DNA of 64,000 nucleotides from Escherichia coli. GTDB taxonomy: Bacteria; Pseudomonadota; Gammaproteobacteria; Enterobacterales; Enterobacteriaceae. The position numbers and the translations under genes are program-made. Below, in pieces: positions 1 to 64,000 of the stretch. The stretch lies in assembly GCF_024298765.1 (NCBI RefSeq), contig NZ_CP101210.1; one strand, written 5' to 3'. Under the pieces are notes generated by a model. That model had not been told where the DNA came from and searched no databases. It was given only the letters and a program-made list of their open reading frames with translations. Each line of letters starts with the position of its first letter. The first letter of the stretch is position 1.

Positions 1-214
1 GCATTTGGGTGACGTAATCCGCAGGGATACCACCAAATTCTTCCGGCACGCCAAGCATGGAAATACCGTTATCCGCCAGTGCCCGCATAAATTCACGCGG
101 GTATGTCCCGTTTTGATCGCAGGTGCGGAAATACTCTTCCGGAAAGTTAGTCGTAATCAGTTCGCGAATACTGGCCAGCAGCAGTTCTTGTTCTTCAGTT
201 AAAGAAAAATCCAT
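1..214 (-). CDS. ydiO: Acyl-CoA dehydrogenase family protein YdiO, N-terminal 71 codons only; start codon at 212-214, rest runs off the left edge
   Basis: Reverse-strand translation from 214 gives MDFSLTEEQELLLASIRELITTNFPEEYFR..., recognised as YdiO N-terminus; sits directly downstream of ydiF stop as in K-12. Confidence 0.8.
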   Translation of the reverse strand, partial: MDFSLTEEQELLLASIRELITTNFPEEYFRTCDQNGTYPREFMRALADNGISMLGVPEEFGGIPADYVTQM

Positions 215-227
215 CATTATACTCCTG

Positions 228-1823
228 TTAATGAGCCGCTTCAGGCAGGACAAAACCCATCGCCGCATCGATAAATAATCTTTCGTCCATCAGTTTGAGT
301 TCTGGCGAAATCACTGGGGTGAAATCCATTTTGTCGAGAATATCTTTTTGTAAATCGACGCCAGGAGCGATTTCGATTAAATGCAGGCCGTCTTCTTTCA
401 GCGTGAATACGGCGCGCTCAGTGATATAACGAACATCCAGCCCTCGCTCGAGCGCGATTTTTCCGCTAAAAGTAATTTCTGGTAGTTCCCGAATAAATTT
501 CTTCACCCGTCCTTCCTGGACGATATTTAATTTGCCGTCGGTAATTTCTGTTTTTAAACTGCCCGCAGTTAATGTGCCGCAGAAAACGATTTTCTTCGAA
601 GTGGCACTGATATCAATAAATCCACCGGTGCCCATGATTTTACCATTGAATTTATGCACGCCGACGTTACCGTGCTGGTCGACTTCAGCAAAACTCAAAT
701 AACAAACATCCAGACCACCACCGTGATAAAAATCAAACTGGGACGTCATATCCAGAATGGCGCGGGTATTCACGTTCGCGCCAAAGGCGATCCCCTGTGA
801 AGTAATACCGCCAATCGGACCTGTTTCTACCGTCAGAATAAAGTCATCAGCACAACCTTCTTCCCGGGCGACCAGGCCAATGCCGTCAGCAATACCGACG
901 CCGACATTCCCCACTGCGCCTTTGCGCATTTCGAATAATGCACGCCGTGCAACTAATTTACGTTGGTTTAGGGGCAGGCTAAGTTTGGTGCTGTCATCAA
1001 GGGTGAAGTCACCAGAAATAAAGCGGTTAACCGGCGCTCCGCCATACAGTTGGGTTTGATCCGGATCGACCACCACAATATCCACCAGATAACCCGGAAT
1101 ACGGACAGATTTAGGATGCAGCGTGGCTTTCTTAACCATTTTCTGCACCTGCATCATCACAATACCGCCGTTATTGTGCACCGCCTGAGCAATAACCAAT
1201 GCGTCGAGATACATCACCTCATCTTCAAAAGTGGCGTAGCCTTCGCTGTCGCAGGTGGTAGCGCGAATGAAGGCGATATCTGGCGCTATCGCTTTGTAAT
1301 AGAGATATTCTTGGTTATCAAACTCGACCAGTTTAATCAGGTCTTCTTTAGTGACTTCATTCAGTTTGCCGCCTTGCTGGCGTGGATCGACAAATGTTCC
1401 GATGCCAATATCACTAATAATACCAGGCTGGTGGGCTGCGGCGGCGCGTAAGGTTTGTGTAAGTACACCTTGTGGATAGTTATAAGCAATAATTTTATTT
1501 TGTTCTGCGAGATCAGAAATACGCGGCGATTGTCCCCAGTGACCGCATAATGCCCATTTCACCAGGCCTTCTTGCGCCAGCGGACTAATACCACGGTCGG
1601 CGCGATCGCCAAGCCCTGTTGGACTAATAATCGATAAATTACGTGGTGTTTGAGTCTGTTTATATTTATCAGCAAGAGCAGTAATTAACGTGGTGGCTTC
1701 CAGAATACCGCCGCCAGCGCCTAACACACAAAGTGTTGCTTCGTCGGGAATATAATTCACCGCTTCCTGTGCCGACAGGACCGGCACTCGTCCATTAATG
1801 CGAGGTGGTTTTACAGGTTTCAT
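228..1823 (-). CDS. ydiF: Acetate/short-chain acyl-CoA:acetoacetate CoA-transferase (fused alpha/beta subunit)
   Basis: 531-aa ORF, length and sequence recognised as YdiF. Confidence 0.92.
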   Translation of the reverse strand: MKPVKPPRINGRVPVLSAQEAVNYIPDEATLCVLGAGGGILEATTLITALADKYKQTQTPRNLSIISPTGLGDRADRGISPLAQEGLVKWALCGHWGQSPRISDLAEQNKIIAYNYPQGVLTQTLRAAAAHQPGIISDIGIGTFVDPRQQGGKLNEVTKEDLIKLVEFDNQEYLYYKAIAPDIAFIRATTCDSEGYATFEDEVMYLDALVIAQAVHNNGGIVMMQVQKMVKKATLHPKSVRIPGYLVDIVVVDPDQTQLYGGAPVNRFISGDFTLDDSTKLSLPLNQRKLVARRALFEMRKGAVGNVGVGIADGIGLVAREEGCADDFILTVETGPIGGITSQGIAFGANVNTRAILDMTSQFDFYHGGGLDVCYLSFAEVDQHGNVGVHKFNGKIMGTGGFIDISATSKKIVFCGTLTAGSLKTEITDGKLNIVQEGRVKKFIRELPEITFSGKIALERGLDVRYITERAVFTLKEDGLHLIEIAPGVDLQKDILDKMDFTPVISPELKLMDERLFIDAAMGFVLPEAAH

Positions 1824-1968
1824 TGTTAATTCCTGATTCAGGTGTGATTTTCCCTACGCCAGATGGAGAATTAGCGCACAGAGACTCACAAAATATTTTT
1901 ATTAAATACGGTTAAATATATTTTTTTTAGTTCGGCGGGGGAGGATATTCCCGCCGAAATATTATTGC

Positions 1969-2727
1969 TTATGCCTGATGTAAAATAGTTAATACTGTGC
2001 GCAAATCATTTACCGAGATTTGCCCTGGTGCAGAGGCTTTTTTTACCGCACCAAAAGTTGCCGCCGAGCCAAATACTTCACCAGCCAGACGAGAAATTAC
2101 GCCAGTTTTTGCCATCGACATCGTGATGATTGGACGATCGGCATACTGCTCCTGCATCTCCAGGGTCGCGGCAAGCAACGTCAGCACATCGCTGGTACTT
2201 TGCGGCATCAGCGCAATCTTAGGAATATCGGCGTCGAAGGATTGCATTTTGCGCAGACGGGCAATGATTTCTTCGGCTTCCGGCGTTTTATGGAAGTCAT
2301 GGTTGGACATGACAACTTTCACATCATGCGCGTGGGCGTAGGCGACGGTTTCTTTAACCTGATCATCGCCGGTAAATAACTCCAGATCGATCATATCAAC
2401 CAGGCCGCTGTCGATGGCTGCACGATTGAGTGCAATATAAGCCTCGGTGGAAATCGCCTGCTCGCCGCCTTCTTTGGCACTGCGGAAGGTAAACAGCAGC
2501 GGTTTTTCTGGCATGGTTTCACGGAGAATTTTTGCTGCCGCTATGACAGACTCCACATTGGAGAGATCGGCATAGTGGTCCACACGCCATTCCAGAATAT
2601 CAAAGTCCGCTTCACGATAGGCGAGAGCTTCGGATTTCACGCTGGCGATATCTTTCGCCATCAGCGAGACGATGATTTTAGGTGCGCCCGTACCAATGAC
2701 GAGATCTTTTACAGTTACGGTTTTCAT
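1969..2727 (-). CDS. aroD: 3-dehydroquinate dehydratase (type I)
   Basis: 252-aa ORF recognised as AroD. Confidence 0.95.
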
Positions 2728-2757
2728 TTTTTACCCTTTCTGCACGCGGTCAGCCTG

Positions 2758-3624
2758 TCAGGCACCGAACCCCATGACCTGTTTAACATATTCCAGAGGG
2801 AAATCTTTGCCAGTCCATAACGTGAACTGTTCAGCCCCTTGCCACAACAACATGCCGTATCCATCAATCGTTTTGCAACCAGCTTGTTGCGCCTGCTGCA
2901 ATAACTTCGTCATATGCGGGTTATACACGCATTCAGTGACCAGAAGTCCCGGATGTAACAGACTGATATCATTAACCAATGATTCATTCTCAAGGGGTTT
3001 CATGCCCACTTTTGTGCCATTGGTTAAAATGTCGGCGGACGCCAGGGCTTCAGCAAAGGCTTGCTGATCGGCGAGATCGGTAACCGTGACGACACAATCG
3101 GTGTTTTCGTTAACCCGCTGCGCGAAGGCGAGGGCTTTATCGAAGAACTCATCCCGACGGTTAAAGAGTTTAATTTCTTTTAAACCTTCAATTGCCCCCT
3201 GCGCGCCAATTGCCGTTGAGGCACCACCGGCCCCTAATAGCACCATCGTTTTGCCTTTGATATCAAAACCGCTCTCTTTAATGGCGCGAATATGACCCGT
3301 GCCGTCGGTGTTATAGCCACGCAGATAGCCATCATCATTAACGATGGTGTTGATGGCACCCACCAGTTTGGCCGCTGGCGTTAATTCATCAACATATTCA
3401 CACGCCAGTTGTTTGTTCGGCATCGACACACCAGTTCCGCGCATTTTGAGGGCTTTTAATCCTTCAATTGCTCCGGGAAAACTATCGTTATCCACTTCAA
3501 AGGCCATATAGGTAAATGGCAATCCCGCTTTTTCTAAGGCTTTATTCTGCATTTCGGGCGATAAACTGTGGCGGATGGGATAGGCCATCAACCCAATCAA
3601 TTCGTATTTTGCGGTAACATCCAT
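2758..3624 (-). CDS. ydiB: Quinate/shikimate 5-dehydrogenase
   Basis: 288-aa ORF recognised as YdiB (AroE paralogue). Confidence 0.93.
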
Positions 3625-3635
3625 AATTAACTCCT

Positions 3636-4907
3636 TTAACCTCTATGCTTAATTGTGTTTAACCGGGTGCTAAATTTATGCTCGCCAAACCGCACATCAT
3701 TTTCAGGAATAATGAAAACGCGATAATAGCGGATAAAAACAATAATTGCGGTAATCAGGGCCAGCAGCGCGAAAGTAAAATCGAGAGCGATGATATATTG
3801 CAGGCCGATGTTCGACAGATAACCGGTAATCAGCGGAATAACAAAGTTAGCCAGTCCACCCATCATCATATAAATACTGGTGACTTTGGCTTTGCTTTTG
3901 GGGAAAAACTCTGACATGACCGAAACGCCGAGCTGTAAAATGCCGCCAGCTGCTGAGAAACCGATAACAAAGGCTCCGGCATTACACACCAGTGGAGAAG
4001 GGTACAGGTAGATAATGGCTGCTGTTATTGTTGCCAGTGCAGAGTTAAATACATTAGCCCAGATGGGCCGGACCATTTTTTTCAGTAGTGCGGCAAAAAT
4101 AAAGACACAGACCAACGAGCCCATACTGTAATAAGAGATGGTTTTTAATGCTTCAGCTTCTGACATACCAGCAAAAGCCATCGCATATTTGGGCATCCAC
4201 ACCACAATCACATAAAAGGTCGCGAATGCGGCTACACCGAACAGTACCGATGAAACACCTTCCAGCCAGACTAACGGTTTGCTGTTCATTTGCGGTAATT
4301 CATTAGCTACGCTGGCGTCCACCAACTGGCTGGGGAATTTGCTTTTCAACAGCATCAGCGTGATCAGTACAAACAGAATACCCGGAATAATCAGCCCATA
4401 GCCGTACCAGATGTTATTGAGCAACATATAGCTCACCAGCATTGGGTAGAACATTTGCCCGAATGACACCATCGCTTTAACCAGTATGACCGCCGAACCA
4501 GTGGCTTTCGGAAAGCATTCCATGAGCGCGGGGTAGCCACCCGTATCCAGCGCTGAATTAGCGATACCTACGCACACTGCCAGACAGTAGGCGAGAGTTA
4601 AATTCGGGCAAGCAGGAATACCAAAGAAGAATAGCAGATACATTATTACTGCCATTAATATCACCGCCCGACGACCAAACTTATCGGAGATCACACCGAA
4701 GAATAAAATACTGATCAATCGCCCCAAACCGATACCGGAAATTAAATAGGCAATGCCCGCGTTGTCAGTGGAAAACTTTTCTGCCAAAGATGTCATGTTT
4801 TGGGCAAGCGTAATAACACTAATGCCGTGCAGGAAATAGCTGAAGTAAATACAAAGAACAGCCAGGATAAATGGCGTGCTGAAAGCCTTATTTTGAGACA
4901 TTTTCAC
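3636..4907 (-). CDS. ydiN: MFS family transporter; alternative start at 4901
   Basis: 423-aa polytopic hydrophobic ORF recognised as YdiN; two closely spaced Met codons make the start ambiguous. Confidence 0.88.
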
Positions 4908-5127
4908 AGCACCTTGCTGAAAGATAATTTCGTTACCGTACGTATTGTTCTCCGACGGTTTACATAATTACTATACTGAAGATGATTTTCCCTGGGTACA
5001 TGGCATAAAGTTTATGTTTCCAGGAATATTGCATGTCATAGTTTGTTTTTGATCGCGATTTTCCTTAGTTAGCGCAGAAAGAGTTATTTATCCGTAAGAT
5101 CTTGCATGACCTGAAAAGAATATTGCA

Positions 5128-6342
5128 TTACCCACCCGGAGCGACATTTTCCTTTAGCGAGTGATGCCGCGTTTCTTTGCGGCTGCGTAAGCCGATAAAC
5201 AGCGCCAGTAAAAAGCCGATGGCAGCGATGGCGGTATCGAACCACATAATATCGGCAATACTTCTTTGGGACAGATGAGCCGTAATCAACGGAATAGTAA
5301 AGGTCGCAATACTGCCCGCACTGTAATAGATCCCTGTAGCTTTACCTTTAGCGTAGGGGAAACGTTCAGCCATTAATGTCAGGCCAATTTGCACAACACC
5401 TCCAGCAGAGGTAAAACCAATGACAAAAGCAAATATTATCACCACATAAAATGTGGGATGCAGGCAGACGGTAAACAGAGCAATAAATGAGATAAAGGTG
5501 TACAGCATCAGTAATGTTGTTGGGCGAACGGTATTACGAATGAGTGGAGCGGTAATAAATACACAAAGCAGCGAACCCACGGTGTAGATACTGAGTAGTT
5601 TGATCGACATAGTGTATGACATGCCAGCAACAAATTGTCCGTATTGTGCCAGCCACTGGCTAACCAGATAAAACGTTGCCATTGAGATATAGCCATATAG
5701 GGAATAACTGGCTAAATCGATAATTGAACAGCGATGTTCCGTAGAGCTGGTGGTTTTCTTTATGACAGGTAAGCGACGACCCGGATGGGGTGGGAACGTA
5801 CAACGGCATAAAAACAGAGCGTTAATAAACATAATGCCTGCGGCAATCATAAAGGACCAACCGAACCACAGTTCAGCCCACACTAACAGGCTAATTATTA
5901 GCGGTAATAAAAATTGTCCGCTGGAAACAAATGCTTTAATTAAAATATTGGCTGTCCCAGGTGAGCGTGGAAAAGCTTCCATCAAACTGGGATAGGTGCC
6001 TGCATCGAGAAAACTGTTTGCCATTCCCGCCAGAAAGCCAAAAACATAAGCGATAATGATGTTATTGGTGTGCAGGATGCCAAAAAAGAAGGCCATATAG
6101 CAGCACATCCCGAGCATGATAAAAGGGCGGCGACCAAAGCGATCGGATAATAATCCTGCAAAAAGCAAGACACTTAATCGACCAATGCCCAGTGATGAGA
6201 TAACTATCGAGACGCCCGCGGCATTAGTCTGCCAAAGCGTCTCCAGCGAGGCCATATTCAGGCTCATCAAAATGACGCCCATACCATGCACCAGGTAATT
6301 AAAATACAACCCCAGTGCGGTAGGGTAATAGGGATTTTTCAT
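5128..6342 (-). CDS. ydiM: MFS family transporter
   Basis: 404-aa hydrophobic ORF recognised as YdiM. Confidence 0.9.
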   Translation of the reverse strand: MKNPYYPTALGLYFNYLVHGMGVILMSLNMASLETLWQTNAAGVSIVISSLGIGRLSVLLFAGLLSDRFGRRPFIMLGMCCYMAFFFGILHTNNIIIAYVFGFLAGMANSFLDAGTYPSLMEAFPRSPGTANILIKAFVSSGQFLLPLIISLLVWAELWFGWSFMIAAGIMFINALFLCRCTFPPHPGRRLPVIKKTTSSTEHRCSIIDLASYSLYGYISMATFYLVSQWLAQYGQFVAGMSYTMSIKLLSIYTVGSLLCVFITAPLIRNTVRPTTLLMLYTFISFIALFTVCLHPTFYVVIIFAFVIGFTSAGGVVQIGLTLMAERFPYAKGKATGIYYSAGSIATFTIPLITAHLSQRSIADIMWFDTAIAAIGFLLALFIGLRSRKETRHHSLKENVAPGG

Positions 6343-6441
6343 AGGTTCTACTTAGCAAAGGTGCTTTAAAAAGTGTAGCGATGTTGTGTCAGTATCCGTT
6401 CATTATTGTTGTAACAAAGACAATTCCTTTCTGTGGAGAAA

Positions 6442-6798
6442 TTAACAAAGCCGCTCCAGATCGTGTGCATATAATTCAGCGGCTACCGATTGATAGATCT
6501 TCCAGTCAATAAAATTGCCATCAGGGTAGACTTGTTGAAACGCGGTTAAGTCGGGGAAAAAACGCATGGTGTTGTTGCCGATGCGGTTATTTATTTTCTC
6601 TATGATGGCATGAAGATGTTTTTTTCTTTGCTGACGCATAGCCAACAGTTGCTCGACTACACGATCAGGAATGGCGTATTTGCCATTTTCCCATTGACGC
6701 CAGCTTTCACTGTCACCGGTCTGGGCAATCCAGGTCGCGCATTCATCAATAGTCATGGCAAAAATATGGCGGAGTGCCTGGAGTTCATAAGCGTTCAT
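6442..6798 (-). CDS. ydiL: DUF1870 family protein (118 aa); start taken at internal Met MNAYEL
   Basis: ORF 6442-6825; the internal Met gives the 118-aa length I recall for K-12 YdiL. Confidence 0.8.
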   Translation of the reverse strand: MNAYELQALRHIFAMTIDECATWIAQTGDSESWRQWENGKYAIPDRVVEQLLAMRQQRKKHLHAIIEKINNRIGNNTMRFFPDLTAFQQVYPDGNFIDWKIYQSVAAELYAHDLERLC

Positions 6799-6935
6799 CG
6801 TGTAATGGCTGCATGAAATAAACAATAAAATATAAATAACATTATCAGCCTGCTGACGGCTTGAAGAGAGTCACAGTATCTTGTGCAACATTATTGGAAA
6901 GCGTGAGGGGCGAGGTAGCGAAGCGGAAAAATGTT

Positions 6936-7041
6936 AAAAAAAAGCCCATCGTGGGAGATGGGCAAAGACTACACACAGCAATTCGTTGTTTCACTCAGGG
7001 GATTTCCATGCTTATAAATCAATATGTTGATTTATAACCGT
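6936..7041 (-). ncRNA. rprA: RprA small regulatory RNA (Hfq-dependent activator of rpoS translation), including its intrinsic terminator
   Basis: Reverse complement reads ACGGTTATAAATCAACATATTGATTTATAAGCATGGAAATCCCCTGAGTGAAACAACGAATTGCTGTGTGTAGTCTTTGCCCATCTCCCACGATGGGCTTTTTTT, recognised as rprA; lies between ydiK and ydiL as in K-12. Confidence 0.85.
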
Positions 7042-7226
7042 GAGCTAATAGTAGGCATACGGACTTTTTGCGTCGATCAGATTCGTCTCATTAGTTTAAA
7101 AACTGTAAAGAATTTGCGACAGGTACTACCAGCTGAATGGCGGTAAGCAGGAAAATATGGGGAAGAGCAAGCAAATATCAATTAGCAGGGGTTAACAATC
7201 AGGCGGCAGAGCCGCCTGATGAGAAA

Positions 7227-8339
7227 TTACTTATTCGGTTTCTCGATTTCGCCAAGTTCTTCGAGAATTTCTTCCGGTTGGTCCGTCGGCGGCGGGACTT
7301 CTTCCACCCACGCGGCAAACAGACGCCAGGAAACGGCTAACAGAACCGGACCAATAAACAGACCGATCATCCCGAAAGCAATCAAACCACCAATAACGCC
7401 AGAGAGGATCAGGATCAGCGGTAAATCGGCACCCATGCGAATTAACATTGGGCGGATGACGTTATCCAGCGTGCCAACCACACCGCTCCACACTAACAAT
7501 ACCGTTCCCCAGGTGGTATCGCCGGTCCAGTAGAGCCAGATAATCGCCGGAATCAGTACCGGCAATGGGCCAAGCTGGACAAGGCAGGAGAGGATCATTA
7601 ACACCGTGAGCAACGTTGCATAAGGTACGCCGGATACGGCGAGGCCGATACCGCCAAGCACAGCCTGTACTAACGCCGTCACCACCACACCCAGCGCCAC
7701 CGCGCGGATAGCCTGTGCCGCCAGCAGTACGGCGGCATCTCCGCGAACGCCTGCCAGACGGGTTGCAAAATGGCGAATGCCTTGTGCCACCTGTTCACCG
7801 CGCCAGTACAGCAGGGCGCTGAAGAGAAGCATCAGCGCACAATGCACCATAAAGCGCCCGATATGCGCCGCCTGCCCAACGAACCAGGTGGTGGTGGTGC
7901 CAATATAAGGACGGACTTTCGCCATGATCGCCGTCCCCCCCATATCCAGCAAATTGTGCCAGCCTGCATATAGCTTCGCGCCAATCACCGGAATGGTATT
8001 AAGCCACGCCAGATCGGGTAACGTCATGTCACCACTGGAAATGGCTTTAATTAGCGGGCCGCTGCCGTCGACGATACTGTTAACCAGCAAAGCAATAGGG
8101 ATGATAAACACCATCACTAATAACAGCGTCATCACCAGAACGGCGAGAGAGCGGCGACCAAACATGATCTTTTGCAAACGTAACAATACCGGCCAGGTGG
8201 CGATAACCACTGTACCGGCCCATGCAAAGCCGAGAATAAAGGGTTGTACAATCCACAGACATGCCACAATCATGATGGCTAAAAACAGCACCGAAAGCAG
8301 AATTTGTGCGACATCCCTGGGCTGACGAACATTTACCAT
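7227..8339 (-). CDS. ydiK: AI-2E/UPF0118 family inner-membrane transporter
   Basis: 370-aa hydrophobic ORF recognised as YdiK. Confidence 0.9.
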   Translation of the reverse strand: MVNVRQPRDVAQILLSVLFLAIMIVACLWIVQPFILGFAWAGTVVIATWPVLLRLQKIMFGRRSLAVLVMTLLLVMVFIIPIALLVNSIVDGSGPLIKAISSGDMTLPDLAWLNTIPVIGAKLYAGWHNLLDMGGTAIMAKVRPYIGTTTTWFVGQAAHIGRFMVHCALMLLFSALLYWRGEQVAQGIRHFATRLAGVRGDAAVLLAAQAIRAVALGVVVTALVQAVLGGIGLAVSGVPYATLLTVLMILSCLVQLGPLPVLIPAIIWLYWTGDTTWGTVLLVWSGVVGTLDNVIRPMLIRMGADLPLILILSGVIGGLIAFGMIGLFIGPVLLAVSWRLFAAWVEEVPPPTDQPEEILEELGEIEKPNK

Positions 8340-8727
8340 AACTACTTTTCACCTTTTTTGTGCGTCAAATCGTCGACGCGACGTGAACACGCGAAACTCA
8401 CCTGCATAATGATGAGCAATTTCAGCGGTTTTTAACAGGCCGATTCTGCCCTTAATTCTGATGGGCGTGTTAGAAAAAAATGTGGTACAACAACTCAGGC
8501 AACACGCAAACGATTTACTCGTCGTATTTCAAGTTGCATATGCTGCGGCTACGTTCGTTCACCCCAGTTACTTACTGTTGTAAGCTCCTGGAGTTCACTC
8601 GCTTGCCGCCTTCCTGCAACACGAAATCCATAGAGTAAACAAACATCACCTTTCAGTGCGCTATTGCAGCCGCCTGAAAGAACAGTGTATCGACCTACAT
8701 CACAGACCGCAGGAAAGGGTCAATATA

Positions 8728-11700
8728 ATGATTCCACAGATTTCCCAGGCACCCGGCGTCGTTCAACTGGTGCTTAATTTTTTGCAAGAGCTGGAGCAAC
8801 AAGGTTTTACCGGCGATACGGCGACAAGTTATGCCGATCGTCTGACAATGTCGACCGACAACAGTATTTACCAACTTCTCCCCGATGCGGTGGTATTTCC
8901 GCGTTCAACCGCAGATGTGGCGCTTATAGCCCGTCTTGCCGCGCAGGAACGCTATTCATCGCTGATCTTTACCCCCCGCGGCGGCGGCACCGGCACTAAC
9001 GGTCAGGCGCTCAACCAGGGGATTATTGTTGATATGTCCCGCCATATGAACCGCATCATCGAAATTAACCCTGAAGAGGGCTGGGTGCGCGTTGAGGCCG
9101 GGGTGATAAAAGATCAACTCAATCAGTACCTGAAACCGTTCGGCTACTTTTTTGCGCCGGAACTTTCGACCAGCAACCGGGCAACGCTCGGTGGGATGAT
9201 CAATACCGATGCATCCGGTCAGGGATCGCTGGTCTATGGCAAAACGTCAGATCACGTACTTGGCGTACGCGCGGTGTTGTTGGGGGGCGATATTCTCGAT
9301 ACGCAACCTTTACCCGTCGAACTGGCGGAAACGCTGGGTAAATCCAATACCACAATCGGGCGAATTTATAACACGGTTTATCAACGTTGCCGTCAGCAAC
9401 GCCAGTTAATCATCGACAACTTCCCCAAGCTTAACCGCTTTCTTACCGGTTACGATCTGCGTCATGTCTTTAACGATGAGATGACCGAGTTCGACCTGAC
9501 GCGCATTCTGACGGGTTCAGAAGGGACGCTGGCCTTTATTACCGAAGCGCGACTGGATATTACGCGCTTGCCTAAAGTGCGCCGTCTGGTGAACGTCAAA
9601 TATGACTCTTTTGACTCCGCACTGCGTAACGCGCCGTTTATGGTTGAGGCGCGGGCGCTTTCGGTAGAGACGGTGGACTCAAAAGTGCTGAATCTGGCGC
9701 GGGAAGATATTGTCTGGCATTCCGTCAGCGAGTTGATTACCGATGTGCCAGACAAAGAGATGCTCGGGCTGAACATTGTGGAATTTGCTGGTGATGATGA
9801 GACGCTGATTGATGAGCGAGTAAATGCACTCTGTGCGCGGCTGGATGAACTTATCGCCAGTCAGCAAGCAGGTGTGATCGGCTGGCAGGTATGCAGTGAG
9901 CTGGCAGGTGTTGAGCGTATTTATGCGATGCGCAAAAAAGCTGTCGGCCTGCTTGGCAATGCCAAAGGTGCCGCTAAGCCAATTCCGTTTGCTGAGGATA
10001 CCTGCGTACCGCCGGAACATCTGGCCGATTATATTGCTGAATTTCGCGCGCTGCTCGACAGCCACGGCTTAAGCTACGGTATGTTTGGTCACGTCGATGC
10101 AGGTGTCTTGCACGTCCGTCCGGCACTGGATATGTGCGATCCGCAACAAGAGATTTTGATGAAGCAAATCTCTGATGATGTAGTGGCGCTTACCGCGAAA
10201 TACGGTGGTTTGTTGTGGGGCGAACACGGCAAAGGTTTTCGTGCCGAATACAGCCCGGCGTTTTTCGGTGAGGAACTTTTTGCAGAACTGCGTAAAGTGA
10301 AAGCGGCATTTGACCCGCATAACCGACTCAACCCAGGGAAGATTTGCCCGCCAGAAGGTCTCGATGCACCGATGATGAAAGTGGACGCGGTGAAGCGCGG
10401 TACATTCGACCGGCAGATCCCCATTGCGGTACGCCAGCAGTGGCGCGGTGCGATGGAGTGTAACGGTAACGGTTTATGCTTCAACTTTGATGCCCGCAGT
10501 CCGATGTGCCCGTCGATGAAGATTACCCAGAACCGGATTCATTCACCGAAAGGACGCGCAACGCTGGTGCGTGAGTGGCTGCGTTTGTTGGCAGATCGCG
10601 GCGTTGACCCACTCAAACTGGAACAAGAACTGCCTGAATCCGGCGTCAGTTTGCGGACGTTAATTGCCCGCACGCGCAATAGCTGGCATGCGAATAAAGG
10701 CGAATATGACTTCTCACACGAAGTCAAAGAGGCGATGTCGGGCTGTCTGGCCTGTAAAGCGTGTTCGACCCAGTGCCCCATCAAAATTGATGTGCCGGAG
10801 TTTCGCTCTCGTTTTCTGCAGCTCTATCACACCCGTTATTTACGCCCGCTTCGCGACCACCTCGTTGCTACGGTCGAGAGCTACGCACCGCTGATGGCAC
10901 GCGCGCCGAAAACCTTTAACTTCTTCATTAACCAGCCGCTGGTGCGCAAACTCTCGGAAAAACATATCGGCATGGTTGATTTGCCACTGCTGTCAGTCCC
11001 CTCGCTACAACAACAAATGGTGGGGCATCGCTCGGCGAATATGACGCTGGAACAGCTTGAAGCTCTCAATGCAGAGCAGAAAGCGCGCACGGTGTTGGTG
11101 GTGCAAGACCCCTTTACCAGCTATTACGATGCGCAAGTGGTGGCGGATTTTGTCCGTCTGGTCGAAAAATTAGGTTTCCAGCCTGTGCTACTGCCATTTT
11201 CGCCAAATGGCAAAGCCCAGCATATCAAAGGCTTTCTTAATCGTTTTGCGAAGACGGCGAAAAAGACGGCGGATTTCCTCAACCGTGTGGCGAAGCTGGG
11301 GATGCCAATGGTGGGCGTCGATCCGGCGCTGGTACTTTGTTATCGCGATGAATATAAACTGGCTCTGGGCGAGGAGCGTGGCGAGTTTAACGTCTTACTG
11401 GCGAATGAATGGCTGGCAAGCGCACTTGACTCACAGCCAGTGGCTACAGTCAGCGGTGAATCATGGTATTTCTTTGGTCACTGTACCGAAGTTACCGCTT
11501 TGCCGGGCGCGCCAGCACAATGGGCTGCGATATTTGCCCGTTTTGGCGCGAAACTGGAAAATGTCAGCGTGGGGTGCTGCGGCATGGCAGGGACTTACGG
11601 ACATGAAGCGAAAAACCATAAAAATTCGCTCGGGATCTATGAGTTATCCTGGCATCAGGCGATGCAGCGACTGCCGCGTAATCGCTGTCTGGCGACCGGA

Positions 11701-11784
11701 TATTCCTGCCGTAGCCAGGTAAAACGGGTCGAAGGCACGGGGGTACGCCATCCTGTGCAGGCTTTACTGGAGATTATTAAATGA
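8728..11784 (+). CDS. ydiJ: FAD-linked oxidoreductase with C-terminal Fe-S/CCG domain (1018 aa; reported D-2-hydroxyglutarate dehydrogenase)
   Basis: ORF 8656-11784; start moved to Met25 (MIPQISQ...) to give the 1018-aa length I recall for YdiJ. Confidence 0.9.
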   Translation: MIPQISQAPGVVQLVLNFLQELEQQGFTGDTATSYADRLTMSTDNSIYQLLPDAVVFPRSTADVALIARLAAQERYSSLIFTPRGGGTGTNGQALNQGIIVDMSRHMNRIIEINPEEGWVRVEAGVIKDQLNQYLKPFGYFFAPELSTSNRATLGGMINTDASGQGSLVYGKTSDHVLGVRAVLLGGDILDTQPLPVELAETLGKSNTTIGRIYNTVYQRCRQQRQLIIDNFPKLNRFLTGYDLRHVFNDEMTEFDLTRILTGSEGTLAFITEARLDITRLPKVRRLVNVKYDSFDSALRNAPFMVEARALSVETVDSKVLNLAREDIVWHSVSELITDVPDKEMLGLNIVEFAGDDETLIDERVNALCARLDELIASQQAGVIGWQVCSELAGVERIYAMRKKAVGLLGNAKGAAKPIPFAEDTCVPPEHLADYIAEFRALLDSHGLSYGMFGHVDAGVLHVRPALDMCDPQQEILMKQISDDVVALTAKYGGLLWGEHGKGFRAEYSPAFFGEELFAELRKVKAAFDPHNRLNPGKICPPEGLDAPMMKVDAVKRGTFDRQIPIAVRQQWRGAMECNGNGLCFNFDARSPMCPSMKITQNRIHSPKGRATLVREWLRLLADRGVDPLKLEQELPESGVSLRTLIARTRNSWHANKGEYDFSHEVKEAMSGCLACKACSTQCPIKIDVPEFRSRFLQLYHTRYLRPLRDHLVATVESYAPLMARAPKTFNFFINQPLVRKLSEKHIGMVDLPLLSVPSLQQQMVGHRSANMTLEQLEALNAEQKARTVLVVQDPFTSYYDAQVVADFVRLVEKLGFQPVLLPFSPNGKAQHIKGFLNRFAKTAKKTADFLNRVAKLGMPMVGVDPALVLCYRDEYKLALGEERGEFNVLLANEWLASALDSQPVATVSGESWYFFGHCTEVTALPGAPAQWAAIFARFGAKLENVSVGCCGMAGTYGHEAKNHKNSLGIYELSWHQAMQRLPRNRCLATGYSCRSQVKRVEGTGVRHPVQALLEIIK

Positions 11785-12191
11785 TATGGAAACGAAAAAT
11801 CACCCTGGAAGCACTGAATGCCATGGGTGAAGGAAACATGGTGGGGTTGCTGGATATTCGCTTTGAACATATTGGTGATGACACCCTTGAAGCGACAATG
11901 CCAGTAGACTCGCGGACAAAGCAGCCTTTCGGGTTGCTGCATGGAGGGGCATCCGTGGTACTGGCCGAAAGTATCGGTTCCGTTGCCGGTTATTTATGTA
12001 CCGAAGGTGAGCAAAAGGTGGTTGGTCTGGAAATCAATGCTAACCACGTCCGCTCGGCACGAGAAGGGCGGGTGCGCGGCGTATGCAAACCGTTGCATCT
12101 CGGTTCGCGTCACCAGGTCTGGCAGATTGAAATCTTCGATGAGAAAGGGCGTTTGTGCTGTTCGTCACGATTAACGACCGCCATTTTGTGA
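11781..12191 (+). CDS. menI: 1,4-dihydroxy-2-naphthoyl-CoA hydrolase (hotdog-fold thioesterase)
   Basis: 136-aa ORF recognised as MenI/YdiI; ATGA overlap with ydiJ stop. Confidence 0.93.
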   Translation: MIWKRKITLEALNAMGEGNMVGLLDIRFEHIGDDTLEATMPVDSRTKQPFGLLHGGASVVLAESIGSVAGYLCTEGEQKVVGLEINANHVRSAREGRVRGVCKPLHLGSRHQVWQIEIFDEKGRLCCSSRLTTAIL

Positions 12192-12290
12192 CGTTGTCAC
12201 CAGAAAAGTGTGACGCATATTGCTTTTGGTCATTATCTGCACAGTAAACGGTGGTATACTGTGCAGGTCTTGTCTAAAAGCGAGGATGCT

Positions 12291-12479
12291 ATGTCTACTC
12301 AACTTGATCCCACCCAGCTGGCCATTGAATTTTTACGCCGTGACCAGAGCAATCTTTCACCTGCCCAATATCTCAAACGTCTGAAACAACTAGAACTTGA
12401 ATTTGCTGACCTGCTTACTCTCTCTTCTGCTGAATTAAAAGAAGAAATCTACTTTGCCTGGCGTCTGGGCGTGCATTGA
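12291..12479 (+). CDS. ydiH: Uncharacterised small protein YdiH (62 aa)
   Basis: ORF 12210-12479 trimmed to internal Met MSTQLDPTQ... to match the 62-aa length I recall. Confidence 0.7.
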   Translation: MSTQLDPTQLAIEFLRRDQSNLSPAQYLKRLKQLELEFADLLTLSSAELKEEIYFAWRLGVH

Positions 12480-12685
12480 TCCTGACTTAATGCCGCAATT
12501 TTGCCAAATCGACCTGGATTAACCTCCGTCCAGGTTCGATGACCTTCTTAATACTGCTTATCTATCCGCCTGATATTGTTCAAAAATAATACTAATCGCA
12601 GTTTGTGTTAAAACGGCGGGTTAGCTTTATGAGATTATTCTTATCGCCCCTTCAAGAGCTAAGCCACTGAGAGTGCCGGAGATAA

Positions 12686-12750
12686 GCGCCGGATGGGGTA
12701 GAAACCCTTAAGCCTGTGTCGCACAGACTTAAGGGTTTTCTTATTTCTGA
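12686..12750 (+). ncRNA. rydB: Candidate sRNA (position expected for rydB) ending at an intrinsic terminator; boundaries approximate
   Basis: Strong hairpin AAACCCTTAAGCCTGTGTCGCACAGACTTAAGGGTTTT followed by TCTTATTTCT on the + strand, between ydiH and the suf promoter where rydB is mapped in K-12; strand and 5' end not verified. Confidence 0.35.
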
Positions 12751-12967
12751 ACGCTGCACTTTTTTACCTATCTCTTAAATAGTCATTTTCAATACAACTT
12801 TTTCTTTTTCATCACAGCCTTAATGCTCCTTAGATAATAATCATTATCTAACAATGAGATACCTAATTCTTAGCGTGCCTGTTAACCCACACATCAGGGT
12901 CTATGCTTATTAAAAGCAGGAAAAAAGCATGTTTTACGGTAAAGCCCCTGCGTTTGCTGGGTTGAAC

Positions 12968-12983
12968 TGATAATCATTATCAC
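12968..12983. promoter_or_regulatory. Fur box overlapping the sufA promoter -35/-10 region
   Basis: TGATAATCATTATCAC matches the Fur consensus GATAATGATAATCATTATC; about 45 bp upstream of the sufA start; the suf operon is known to be Fur-repressed. Confidence 0.6.
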
Positions 12984-13027
12984 TAACATGCTGTTTTACG
13001 CTGAAAGCGATGAAGTGAGGTAAATCG

Positions 13028-13396
13028 ATGGACATGCATTCAGGAACCTTTAATCCACAGGATTTCGCCTGGCAGGGCTTAACGCTGACACCCGCAGCCG
13101 CTGTCCACATCCGCGAGCTGGTGGCAAAGCAGCCGGGTATGGTCGGCGTGCGCTTAGGCGTGAAGCAAACGGGCTGCGCGGGCTTTGGCTATGTGCTCGA
13201 CAGTGTTAGCGAGCCGGACAAAGACGATCTGCTGTTTGAACACGACGGCGCGAAGCTGTTTGTCCCGCTGCAAGCGATGCCGTTTATTGATGGCACGGAA
13301 GTCGATTTCGTTCGTGAAGGACTTAATCAGATATTCAAATTTCACAACCCTAAAGCCCAGAATGAATGTGGCTGTGGCGAAAGCTTTGGGGTATAG
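13028..13396 (+). CDS. sufA: Fe-S cluster A-type carrier protein SufA
   Basis: 122-aa ORF recognised as SufA, complete with its own stop codon. Confidence 0.95.
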
Positions 13397-13404
13397 GCGG
13401 TACT

Positions 13405-14640
13405 ATGTCTCGTAATACTGAAGCAACTGACGATGTCAAAACCTGGACCGGCGGCCCGCTGAATTATAAAGAAGGATTCTTCACCCAGTTAGCCACCGAT
13501 GAGCTGGCAAAGGGGATAAACGAAGAGGTGGTGCGCGCAATTTCGGCGAAGCGTAATGAGCCGGAGTGGATGCTGGAGTTTCGTCTCAACGCCTATCACG
13601 CATGGCTGGAGATGGAAGAACCGCACTGGTTGAAAGCGCACTACGACAAGCTGAATTATCAGGATTACAGCTACTACTCGGCACCATCGTGCGGTAATTG
13701 TGACGACAACTGCGCGTCTGAACCCGGCGCGGTGCAGCAAACTGGCGCGAACGCCTTTTTAAGTAAAGAGGTGGAGGCGGCGTTTGAGCAGTTGGGCGTT
13801 CCCGTGCGGGAAGGCAAAGAGGTGGCAGTGGATGCCATTTTCGACTCTGTTTCGGTTGCCACTACTTATCGCGAAAAACTGGCGGAGCAGGGAATTATTT
13901 TTTGTTCCTTTGGCGAGGCGATCCACGATCACCCGGAACTGGTGCGTAAATATCTCGGCACCGTGGTGCCGGAGAATGACAACTTCTTTGCCGCACTTAA
14001 TGCGGCGGTAGCCTCTGACGGTACGTTTATTTATGTGCCTAAAGGCGTGCGTTGCCCGATGGAACTTTCCACCTATTTTCGCATTAACGCGGAAAAAACC
14101 GGGCAGTTTGAGCGCACCATTCTGGTGGCCGACGAAGACAGCTATGTCAGCTACATTGAAGGCTGTTCCGCTCCGGTGCGTGACAGCTATCATAATGGCG
14201 AATACCTCATTCATGGCACCAGTGCGCCGGACAGCGTCGGTTTGCGCGTCAGTTCGGGCTGTATTCGCATGAATGCACCGGATATTAAAGCTTTATTCTC
14301 CAGCGTGCGGACGGGAACACCGGTGAAAGTGATCAACGAACCGGTGAAATATTCCGTGGAACCTAACGGGATGCGTTATGTTGAAGTACATCGACCACTA
14401 TCGGCAGAAGAACAGCAGAACGTTCAGACAATGCCGTACACGCTGCCAGCAGGCTTTACGCAATTTAAAGACAATAAGGCTGTAGATCAGAAGTTAGTCG
14501 ATAAAGCGTTGTATCGTCGGGCAGGGTATCCGGTTGCGGTGAGCAGTGGAGCAACTCCCGCAGCCAGCAATGCGCCTTCAGTAGAGTCAGCGCAGAATGG
14601 GGAACCAGAGCAAGGGAATGTGTTACGCGCGACGCAGTAG
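13405..14640 (+). CDS. Chimeric in-frame ORF (411 aa): SufB residues 1-262 fused to the C-terminal 149 residues of L,D-transpeptidase LdtE (YnhG); apparent deletion product, junction near 14190/14191
   Basis: Translation [17 protein letters not shown]...[13 protein letters not shown] is SufB, then [28 protein letters not shown]...NVLRATQ is the YkuD-type catalytic domain and tail of LdtE; lpp follows immediately as it does downstream of ldtE in K-12; no sufC, sufD, sufS or sufE anywhere in the window. Confidence 0.85.
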
Positions 14641-14655
14641 CGGTAAATAGCAGGC

Positions 14656-14686
14656 AAAAAAATGGCGCACAATGTGCGCCATTTTT
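14656..14686. terminator. Bidirectional intrinsic terminator shared by lpp and the convergent upstream ORF
   Basis: AAAAAAATGGCGCACAATGTGCGCCATTTTT: GC-rich hairpin flanked by an A-run and a T-run. Confidence 0.8.
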
Positions 14687-14702
14687 CACTTCACAGGTAC
14701 TA

Positions 14703-14951
<249 letters not shown>

Positions 14952-63216: not shown

Positions 63217-64000
63217 TTAGTCCTCGTTTACAACCTTTTGCTGGGCGGCTTTTTTGGCCTGAACGCGGGCAATAGCCGCGGCAACTGCCGCTTTGCGCGG
63301 ATCAACCTGTTCTTCTGGTTCTGCGTTAGCCTGTTGCTGTTCCAGCTTGCGTGCTTTGGCGCGTGCAATAGCCGCTTCGACGGCGACTTTGCGCGGATCA
63401 ACCTGTTCTTCTGGTACCGCATTAGCCTGTTGCTGTTCCAGCTTGCGTGCTTTGGCACGGGCAATAGCAGCTTCGACGGCAGCTTTGCGCGGATCGACCT
63501 GTTCTTCTGGTTCCGCATTAGCCTGTTGCTGTTCCAGCTTGCGTGCTTTGGCGCGGGCAATAGCGGCTTCGACGGCAGCTTTGCGCGGATCGACCTGTTC
63601 TTCTGGTTCCGCATTAGCCTGTTGCTGTTCCAGCTTGCGTGCTTTGGCACGGGCAATAGCGGCTTCGACGGCGGCTTTGCGCGGATCGACCTGTTGTTCT
63701 GGCTCGGCATTAGCCTGTTGCTGCTCCAGCTTGCGCGCTTTGGCTCGGGCAATAGCGGCTTCGACGGCGGCTTTGCGCGGGTCAACCTGTTCTTCTGGCT
63801 CCGCATTAGCCTGTTGCTGCTCCAGCTTGCGCGCTTTGGCGCGGGCGATAGCGGCTTCGACTGCGGTTTTACGTGGATCAGCAACGGTTGCTGCGTCGTT
63901 AGTTTGCTGCAGTTCTGCCTGTTTCGCTCTGGCTTGCGCTTTACGGGCTTCACGTGCTGCAATAATTGCACTGTTATCCGGGCGTTCGCCCGCTTTAATC
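63217..64000 (-). CDS. rsxC: Rsx electron transport complex subunit C, C-terminal portion; start lies beyond the right edge
   Basis: Reverse-strand frame ending ...[10 protein letters not shown]-stop at 63217-63219 directly upstream of rsxD; contains repeated ...[31 protein letters not shown]... units. The ORF-track entry 63228-63971 is in a different frame and is not the gene. Confidence 0.85.
63240..63900. repeat. 96-bp in-frame tandem repeat (32-aa units, about 6.5 copies) inside rsxC
   Basis: Motif TTAGCCTGTTGCTG recurs at about 63326, 63422, 63518, 63614, 63710 and 63806, exactly 96 bp apart, with a few substitutions per unit. Confidence 0.85.

Follow-up and report, generated by a model that had tools for sequence, protein, structure and literature searches.

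What remains of the assembly of iron-sulfur (Fe-S) clusters at an E. coli suf locus where the stress-regulated sufA promoter now reads into a single frame that begins as sufB and ends as ldtE, and can the product of that frame do the work of either parent protein? The locus lies in a stretch of 64,000 nucleotides (here called the window), an E. coli chromosomal segment that runs from ydiO/ydiF to rsxC. An earlier note on this DNA had predicted a probably non-functional SufB-LdtE chimera, loss of LdtE activity and a cell dependent on ISC for its Fe-S clusters. We compared the locus with its closest suf+ relatives, with complete E. coli genomes and with a large protein collection, and we asked what each part of the rearranged operon retains.

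A 5,053-bp deletion joins sufB to ldtE

Local BLAST of the 64-kb window against the suf+ strain 104 (NZ_CP029164.1) gave two collinear blocks, window 1-14192 at 99.97% identity and window 14193-64000 at 99.998% identity, with 5,053 bp lying between them in the reference. Base-by-base comparison with the same strain showed that exactly 5,053 bp are absent at the breakpoint 14192|14193. Both flanks are close to 100% identical in MSHS 133, CT30, EC31, EC12 and other complete genomes of the lineage, whose sources are avian, pig, dog, environmental and human and which includes O78:H4 APEC strains. Besides the deletion, the window differs from MSHS 133 in four places: an additional T in a homopolymer at 1921, and an A at each of 4911 (just upstream of ydiN), 13973 and 42992. 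The features that make up the fused frame are the following.

13405..14192, + strand: sufB remnant, codons 1-262 and bases 1-2 of codon 263 (alignment, Pfam and structure 5AWF)
13973, + strand: private G>A change, SufB G190E, differing from strains 104 and MSHS 133
14192..14193, + strand: deletion junction (three-way alignment of the window, the sufB side and the ldtE side)
14193..14640, + strand: ldtE remnant, base 3 of codon 186 followed by codons 187-334 and the stop codon (Pfam; 100% identical to strain 104 ldtE)

The junction reads ...GACAGCTATCA|TAATGGCGAA..., with sufB on the left and ldtE on the right. It fuses sufB nt 788 (window 14192) in frame to ldtE at window 14193, and the hybrid codon CA|T formed there encodes a new histidine, His263. 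On the suf side the deletion removed the 3' 47% of sufB and the entire sufC, sufD, sufS and sufE; the SufC ATPase, SufD, the SufS desulfurase and SufE, which the earlier note had listed as missing, are indeed all inside the interval lost relative to strain 104. On the other side it removed the sufE-ldtE spacer, where ldtE's own promoter sits, together with ldtE codons 1-185 and two bases of codon 186, or the 5' 56% of the gene. A pattern scan of the wild-type arrangement found no terminator between sufE and ldtE.

The three-way alignment revealed no microhomology at 14192|14193, with 0 bases common to both parental sequences at the join. We considered an engineered deletion and rejected it, since the sequence shows neither an FRT site nor another scar and both endpoints fall in the middle of genes. 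The base at 13973 is the one private change within the listed remnants: the 111-bp stretch around it had 0 exact matches among the 5,382 complete genomes that carry the segment, the best match being 99.1%. The resulting G190E substitution gives only a hint of relaxed constraint on the SufB remnant.

A breakage hot spot at sufB nt 788 was also considered and rejected. The 262-aa SufB fragments of one family (P0017, 287 members) stop at the residue where SufB gives way in the chimera; two contigs of other assemblies (L010 and L011) stop at sufB nt 788, in native sequence and at a plain contig end; and a third sequence (L009), from a different, Klebsiella-like species, carries a CAG>TAG nonsense change at sufB codon 263. 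We judged the agreement to be a coincidence, produced by a contig break at a wobble site or by a nonsense variant.

The promoter, sufA and a RyhB site are retained

Upstream of the fused frame, and downstream of its stop codon, the following elements were located.

12940..12961, + strand: IscR type-2 activator site of PsufA (about -56 to -35), located by mapping published mutations, matching K-12 and strain 104, with a 3' limit that we take to be at 12961
12962..12989, + strand: core sufA promoter, with the -35 hexamer TTGAAC at 12962-67, the Fur-box core GATAATCATTATC at 12969-81 and the -10 hexamer TAACAT at 12984-89
12996, + strand: inferred sufA transcription start (+1), from published numbering, 32 nt 5' of the sufA ATG
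13028..13396, + strand: sufA, encoding a 122-aa A-type Fe-S carrier, intact
13411..13438, + strand: site at which RyhB pairs with the opening codons of sufB, kept in the chimera mRNA (literature mapping and RNA duplex prediction)
14665..14690, no single strand: bidirectional stem-loop terminator common to ldtE and the convergent lpp (terminator-like matches on both strands)

Over the 340 bp 5' of sufA the window matches suf+ strain 104 at every base; against K-12 there are 3 differences, 0 of them in the Fur or IscR sites. Position 12996, the putative +1, is A in K-12 and T in the lineage of the window, suf+ strain 104 included. The Fur-box core, placed in the spacer between the -35 and -10 hexamers, is an exact 13-mer match, for which the chance expectation is 0.03 in the window. 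The earlier claim that the Fur-box sufA promoter is retained stands on the identity with strain 104; the start that it gave, 12968, does not, because the Fur core begins at 12969 and the regulatory region as a whole reaches farther upstream. In that upstream part, the OxyR site presumably lies at about -236 to -197 and the IHF site at about -156 to -127 of PsufA (positions attributed to Lee et al. 2004). That PsufA has OxyR and IHF sites further upstream, and that it is also repressed by NsrR, is documented (PMC8593673). Published PsufA alleles comprise the Fur-site change -26ATA-24, the IscR-site change -50C to G and a deletion of -56 to -51 (PMC12594620); with +1 at 12996, these map to 12970-72, C12946 and 12940-45, respectively.

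Of the parts of a functional SUF operon, the locus has the stress-responsive PsufA with its Fur and IscR sites and the A-type carrier SufA, and it has none of SufC, SufD, SufS and SufE. The sufA frame corresponds to the gene annotated in strains 104 and MSHS 133 and shows 0 differences from them, in line with the earlier view that the gene was kept. In K-12, genetics show SufA to be redundant with IscA and able to take clusters from IscU without the other suf genes (PMC2682760). Because SufA works together with ISC in this way, it is plausibly still useful here and not a useless leftover, and the residual operon would then amount to a stress-inducible A-type carrier gene.

A further layer of regulation, absent from the earlier note, also survives at the start of sufB. 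Protection by RyhB has been reported at +416..+439 from the sufA promoter (PMC12533949). In RNA duplex calculations, K-12 RyhB nt 37-67 paired with window 13411-13438 at -29.7 kcal/mol, a value that 1 of 500 shuffles reached; the site is clear only with this RyhB seed region, as 55 of 300 shuffles equalled full-length RyhB when it was set against a 183-nt sufAB fragment. At the other end of the locus, the stem-loop is intact, as is lpp at 14703-14939 in the ORF listing.

Neither half of the chimera is a complete protein

A single open frame begins with the sufB ATG (13405), ends with the ldtE stop (14640) and encodes 411 aa with a mass of 45.35 kDa, which agrees with the in-frame chimera of roughly 45 kDa described earlier. 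The protein consists of SufB 1-262, the one new His and LdtE 187-334. Pfam found SufBD_N, SUFBD_core from position 1 to 40 of 232, YkuD from position 93 to 146 of 146, and a complete Ldt_C; the structure matches were residues 1-263 of SufB (5AWF chain A) and the C-terminal 117 residues of the L,D-transpeptidase 4LZH.

Still present in the SufB part of the chimera are the CX2CX3C motif (C96/99/103) and Cys254, the persulfide acceptor. Missing are Q285, W287, K303, the cluster-assembly residues C405/E434 and the helical domain at the C-terminus to which SufC docks. Wild-type SufB matches SUFBD_core over the full 1-232 (residues 225-466), whereas 40 of the 232 positions remain here, or 17% of the beta-helix core, short of a complete SufB scaffold. 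Cys405, Glu434 and the SufC-binding C-terminal domain are all required in SufB, so that with residues 1-262 only, the loss of its C-terminal half noted earlier takes away residues that the protein needs (PMC5571166).

The LdtE part is similarly truncated. Wild-type LdtE has LysM at 42-85, YkuD at 97-232 (model positions 3-146) and Ldt_C at 236-302. The remnant keeps the last third of YkuD and the whole of Ldt_C (1-67 of 67), and it has lost the signal peptide (residues 1-23), LysM and the first two thirds of YkuD. The His...Cys motif pointed out in the earlier note (HGT...SSGCIRM) is present, LdtE His193/Cys209 corresponding to chimera His270/Cys286; the YkuD domain (PF03734) around it is incomplete, with 46 of about 136 residues retained. 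The N-terminus of the chimera is the hydrophilic start of SufB and does not resemble a Sec signal peptide: the highest 19-aa Kyte-Doolittle mean in the protein is 1.17 and internal, compared with 1.75 for the LdtE signal peptide. The signal peptide is thus lost, as the earlier note had said, but the cytoplasmic misplacement that it gave as the reason for inactivity would not be the main cause. Mainly because only 46 of about 136 YkuD residues remain, export would not make the LdtE fragment active, and mislocalisation would be secondary.

The allele is private, and its kind is known

Using a 221-bp query, we found the junction spanned in 0 of 5,426 complete E. coli genomes. The exact chimera protein, taken with two alternative starts, is absent from a collection of ~15 billion proteins, and homology search of the same collection gave no near-identical protein cluster. 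The deleted interval is present at a coverage of at least 80% in 5,417 of the 5,426 complete genomes; BL21 derivatives aside, ~0.17% of complete genomes are without most of it. The allele is private to this strain, and the kind of event belongs to a rare class that is already known.

The known case is BL21(DE3), which has an 854-bp in-frame sufA-sufB deletion (Corless et al.; bioRxiv 10.1101/811059). Here as in BL21(DE3), a spontaneous in-frame deletion in sufABCDSE leaves PsufA driving a fusion ORF (13405-14640 in the window). The two alleles are nevertheless different, the breakpoints here being sufB nt 788 and ldtE codon 186. Unlike in BL21(DE3), sufA is intact, sufC to sufE are gone, and the deletion runs into ldtE and takes a second, unrelated function with it; and whereas the BL21 allele is a fixed feature of a laboratory lineage, ours is private to one strain of an avian, pig, dog, environmental and human lineage. 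The SufA/B fusion of BL21 accumulates yet is inactive, and BL21, which lives on ISC alone, cannot tolerate loss of isc (bioRxiv 10.1101/811059).

An independent sufB'-'ldtE fusion was found on a contig of run ERR2932817 (P0001, locus L004), a contig seen in 2 samples. It too is in frame, with the same sufA - sufB::ldtE - lpp layout, a deletion of 5,059 bp as against 5,053 bp and a product of 409 aa as against 411 aa. It arose in another E. coli background, with flanks about 98% identical to the window, and it breaks at SufB 184/LdtE about 98, keeping the whole of YkuD, whereas our chimera breaks at 262/187. Its junction has an imperfect 11-bp overlap with GATC, in contrast to the join without microhomology in the window.

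Other lesions of the operon are sporadic. SufB-SufS and SufB-SufC fusions occur as singletons in the protein collection, and one suf fusion singleton (P0024), 100% identical to the window SufB over the aligned stretch, is probably from the same lineage. In strain H32, IS1A replaces the region from the promoter through sufS, and in strain CS18F, which belongs to the lineage of the window and has a nearly identical left flank, IS421 lies in sufD. Like our allele, these are sporadic natural losses of SUF in E. coli; unlike it, they arose by IS insertion or IS-adjacent deletion, make no fusion protein and leave ldtE intact. What we describe is an ordinary strain-specific loss-of-function allele of the kind known from BL21(DE3). 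The rare class of natural suf-null alleles, already known, has one member more, and no new question arises.

Alternative explanations

We hold it very probable that the event was an illegitimate deletion private to this strain, in which the frame was kept by chance (1 in 3), and that it leaves SUF and LdtE null and the cell relying on ISC. An assembly error, an ungapped contig join or some other sequence-handling artefact, the strain being really suf+ ldtE+, would be compatible with several of the observations: the junction is blunt, and a join without microhomology fits spontaneous E. coli deletion less well than does the ERR2932817 junction with its microhomology; neither the complete genomes (0 of 5,426) nor the 15-billion-protein collection contains the junction, the exact protein or a close cluster; and contigs L010 and L011 of other assemblies end at the same sufB nucleotide. 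Such an artefact is nonetheless unlikely, as the endpoints have no common repeat that could collapse an assembly, the rest of the 64-kb window is perfectly collinear with its relatives, a non-synonymous change private to this strain (SufB G190E) lies in the remnant and similar real deletions exist in other isolates; the in-frame state of the stumps is a 1-in-3 coincidence whether the allele is real or an artefact. We regard as scarcely credible that another intact sufBCDSE, whether plasmid-borne or chromosomal, compensates and leaves only LdtE affected. Some genomes do have the deleted interval in 2 places, the most seen in any, and 2 of its 5,428 places are on plasmids, but a genome has a median of 1 such place, well under 0.1% of the 5,424 genomes hold a second copy, and nothing in the window points to a second copy.

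Two further readings give the fusion or its formation a role of its own. The chimera could have a retained or new activity, such as metal or cluster binding through CX2CX3C and Cys254 or interference with ISC or SufA, and its in-frame state could have been selected; in its favour, the first 262 residues of SufB survive with C96/C99/C103 and C254, each of the two independent sufB-ldtE deletions keeps the frame, and the BL21 SufA/B fusion accumulates stably. Against this, our homology search detects only in-frame fusions, which makes the second in-frame case an ascertainment effect; the breaks differ (SufB 184/LdtE about 98 and 262/187), no common product being conserved; each allele was read on a single contig (that of P0001 in 2 samples); the remnant has the private G190E; and the BL21 fusion is inactive. 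Together these points make an active fusion highly improbable. A somewhat different proposal is that loss from sufB to ldtE is recurrent and selected, some niche or passage condition favouring the shedding of SUF and LdtE while stress-inducible SufA is kept. It draws on the two independent deletions of nearly equal span (5,053 and 5,059 bp), which arose in unrelated E. coli backgrounds, and on the other suf fusions and IS lesions, some of them in the same lineage, and we think it quite improbable.

Predicted consequences for the cell

Under the reading that we prefer, a private chance deletion with loss of both functions, a course of events can be proposed from the anatomy of the locus and from published genetics. 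Iron limitation (through Fur derepression and activation by apo-IscR), redox-cycling drugs or peroxide would still fire PsufA. The transcript would be a sufA-sufB'::'ldtE message of ~1.7 kb, controlled by RyhB and ending at the lpp/ldtE terminator. From it SufA would be made, and it should still be able to shuttle clusters from IscU. The 45-kDa fusion would be a cytoplasmic protein with no working domain: it could hardly act as a scaffold, being without the assembly site, the SufC/D partners and the SufSE sulfur donor, and hardly as a transpeptidase, with one third of the fold in the wrong compartment. We infer that the message is expressed and that the fusion is unstable or inactive; degradation in particular is a guess, considering that the BL21 fusion accumulates.

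With SUF and LdtE null, ISC would be the sole route to Fe-S clusters. E. coli is viable only with ISC or SUF (PMC8593673, PMC2682760), and no isc mutation is tolerated alongside a deletion of all of suf (PMC2682760). With suf null, the strain would therefore need an intact ISC, and that ISC would be essential. The earlier proposal of a SUF-null, LdtE-null strain dependent on ISC would accordingly be what published genetics predict (PMC5571166, PMC8593673, PMC2682760). Deletion of suf makes E. coli sensitive to PMS (PMC12594620), and SUF gives tolerance to aminoglycosides and fluoroquinolones (PMC8593673). We would expect the strain to be unusually sensitive to iron chelation, to redox-cyclers such as PMS/phenazine and to peroxide, and to be without SUF-dependent tolerance of aminoglycosides and fluoroquinolones.

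Consequences for the cell wall should be smaller. LdtE is an RpoS-induced housekeeping LDT that forms 3-3 cross-links and is redundant with LdtD; mutants in ldtE alone lyse once LPS export fails, as in LptC depletion (PMC6428754). As LdtD and LdtF remain, the cell-wall phenotype is expected to be mild and conditional. In K-12, 3-3 cross-links stay at the wild-type level in ldt mutants apart from ldtD ldtE, ldtD ldtF and ldtD ldtE ldtF (PMC6428754), so that the muropeptide analysis suggested in the earlier note would be a weak test.

The expected phenotypes are like those of engineered delta-sufABCDSE and delta-ldtE K-12 strains, namely sensitivity to PMS and iron starvation, synthetic lethality with isc and a mild envelope phenotype (PMC12594620, PMC2682760, PMC6428754). 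Unlike the engineered suf deletion, which removes sufA, the allele described here leaves sufA and its regulation in place, and both of its lesions come from a single event. The Fur-controlled response of an O78 ExPEC strain to serum includes suf (PMC4145685). For annotation, a 411-aa ORF with matches to SufB and to an L,D-transpeptidase should be read in this case as a deletion scar, not as a bifunctional protein.

Other lesions in the suf operon

A protein homology search returned many singleton in-frame candidate fusions of SufB with SufC, SufS or SufA in E. coli and Klebsiella assemblies (matches P0002, P0009, P0011, P0015, P0021, P0022 and P0024), suggesting that internal suf deletions arise repeatedly. 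Natural insertion sequence lesions in suf were also found at two loci from other assemblies, and in strain H32 a shortened sufE remains after the replacement:

L008 (NZ_CP074576.1, strain CS18F), 2931-5551: IS421 inserted in sufD; chicken isolate of the window's lineage
L007 (NZ_CM184319.1, strain H32), 3288-4372: IS1A in place of the suf promoter through sufS; human isolate

Another match, P0017, is a cluster of 262-aa SufB fragments (287 members, from a Klebsiella-like species) that end at sufB nt 788, exactly the breakpoint nucleotide of the window, and we judge this shared end to be probably a coincidence. In the loci listed here the reading frame stops, or the contig runs out, at this point:

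L009, 7001-7789: CAG>TAG nonsense change at sufB codon 263
L010 and L011: both contigs terminate at 7788, at sufB nt 788

In the complete-genome collection, a copy of the sufB-ldtE interval is carried by two plasmid records.

Differences from the nearest genomes

The window differs from its nearest complete genomes at the following positions, and both of the coding changes are non-synonymous:

1921: additional T in an intergenic homopolymer
4911: A, 10 nt 5' of the ydiN start
13973: SufB G190E, in the part of sufB kept in the chimera
42992: Lhr I94F

The whole-collection comparison covered 13973 only, and G190E is absent from 5,382 genomes; the changes at 1921, 4911 and 42992 are private with respect to strains 104 and MSHS 133, the only genomes against which they were set.

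The suf control region and its surroundings

Upstream of sufA, the window holds a second palindrome resembling a Fur box, about 150 bp 5' of the sufA start and in the region of the IHF site; in the K-12 version a C replaces an internal T (GATAATAACC...). On its far side from sufA lies a small RNA gene, rydB, between ydiH and the suf promoter:

12646-12706, + strand: rydB small RNA (Rfam RF00118, 81.6 bits)
12836-12848, + strand: palindrome AATAATCATTATC, which resembles a Fur box and departs from the Fur core at one position

At the inferred sufA transcription start (12996), the window's lineage, including the suf+ strain 104, has a T, while K-12 and ERR2932817, the run with an independent sufB'-'ldtE fusion, have an A, a difference that may displace the start site by about one base in the window's lineage. 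The rydB gene is intact in the window, and the PGAP annotation of the nearest genomes does not include it.

At the other end of the window, rsxC contains tandem repeats, which the BLAST comparison with strain 104 shows as staggered self-hits:

63264-63880, inside rsxC: tandem repeats of about 96 bp, copies 89-93% identical
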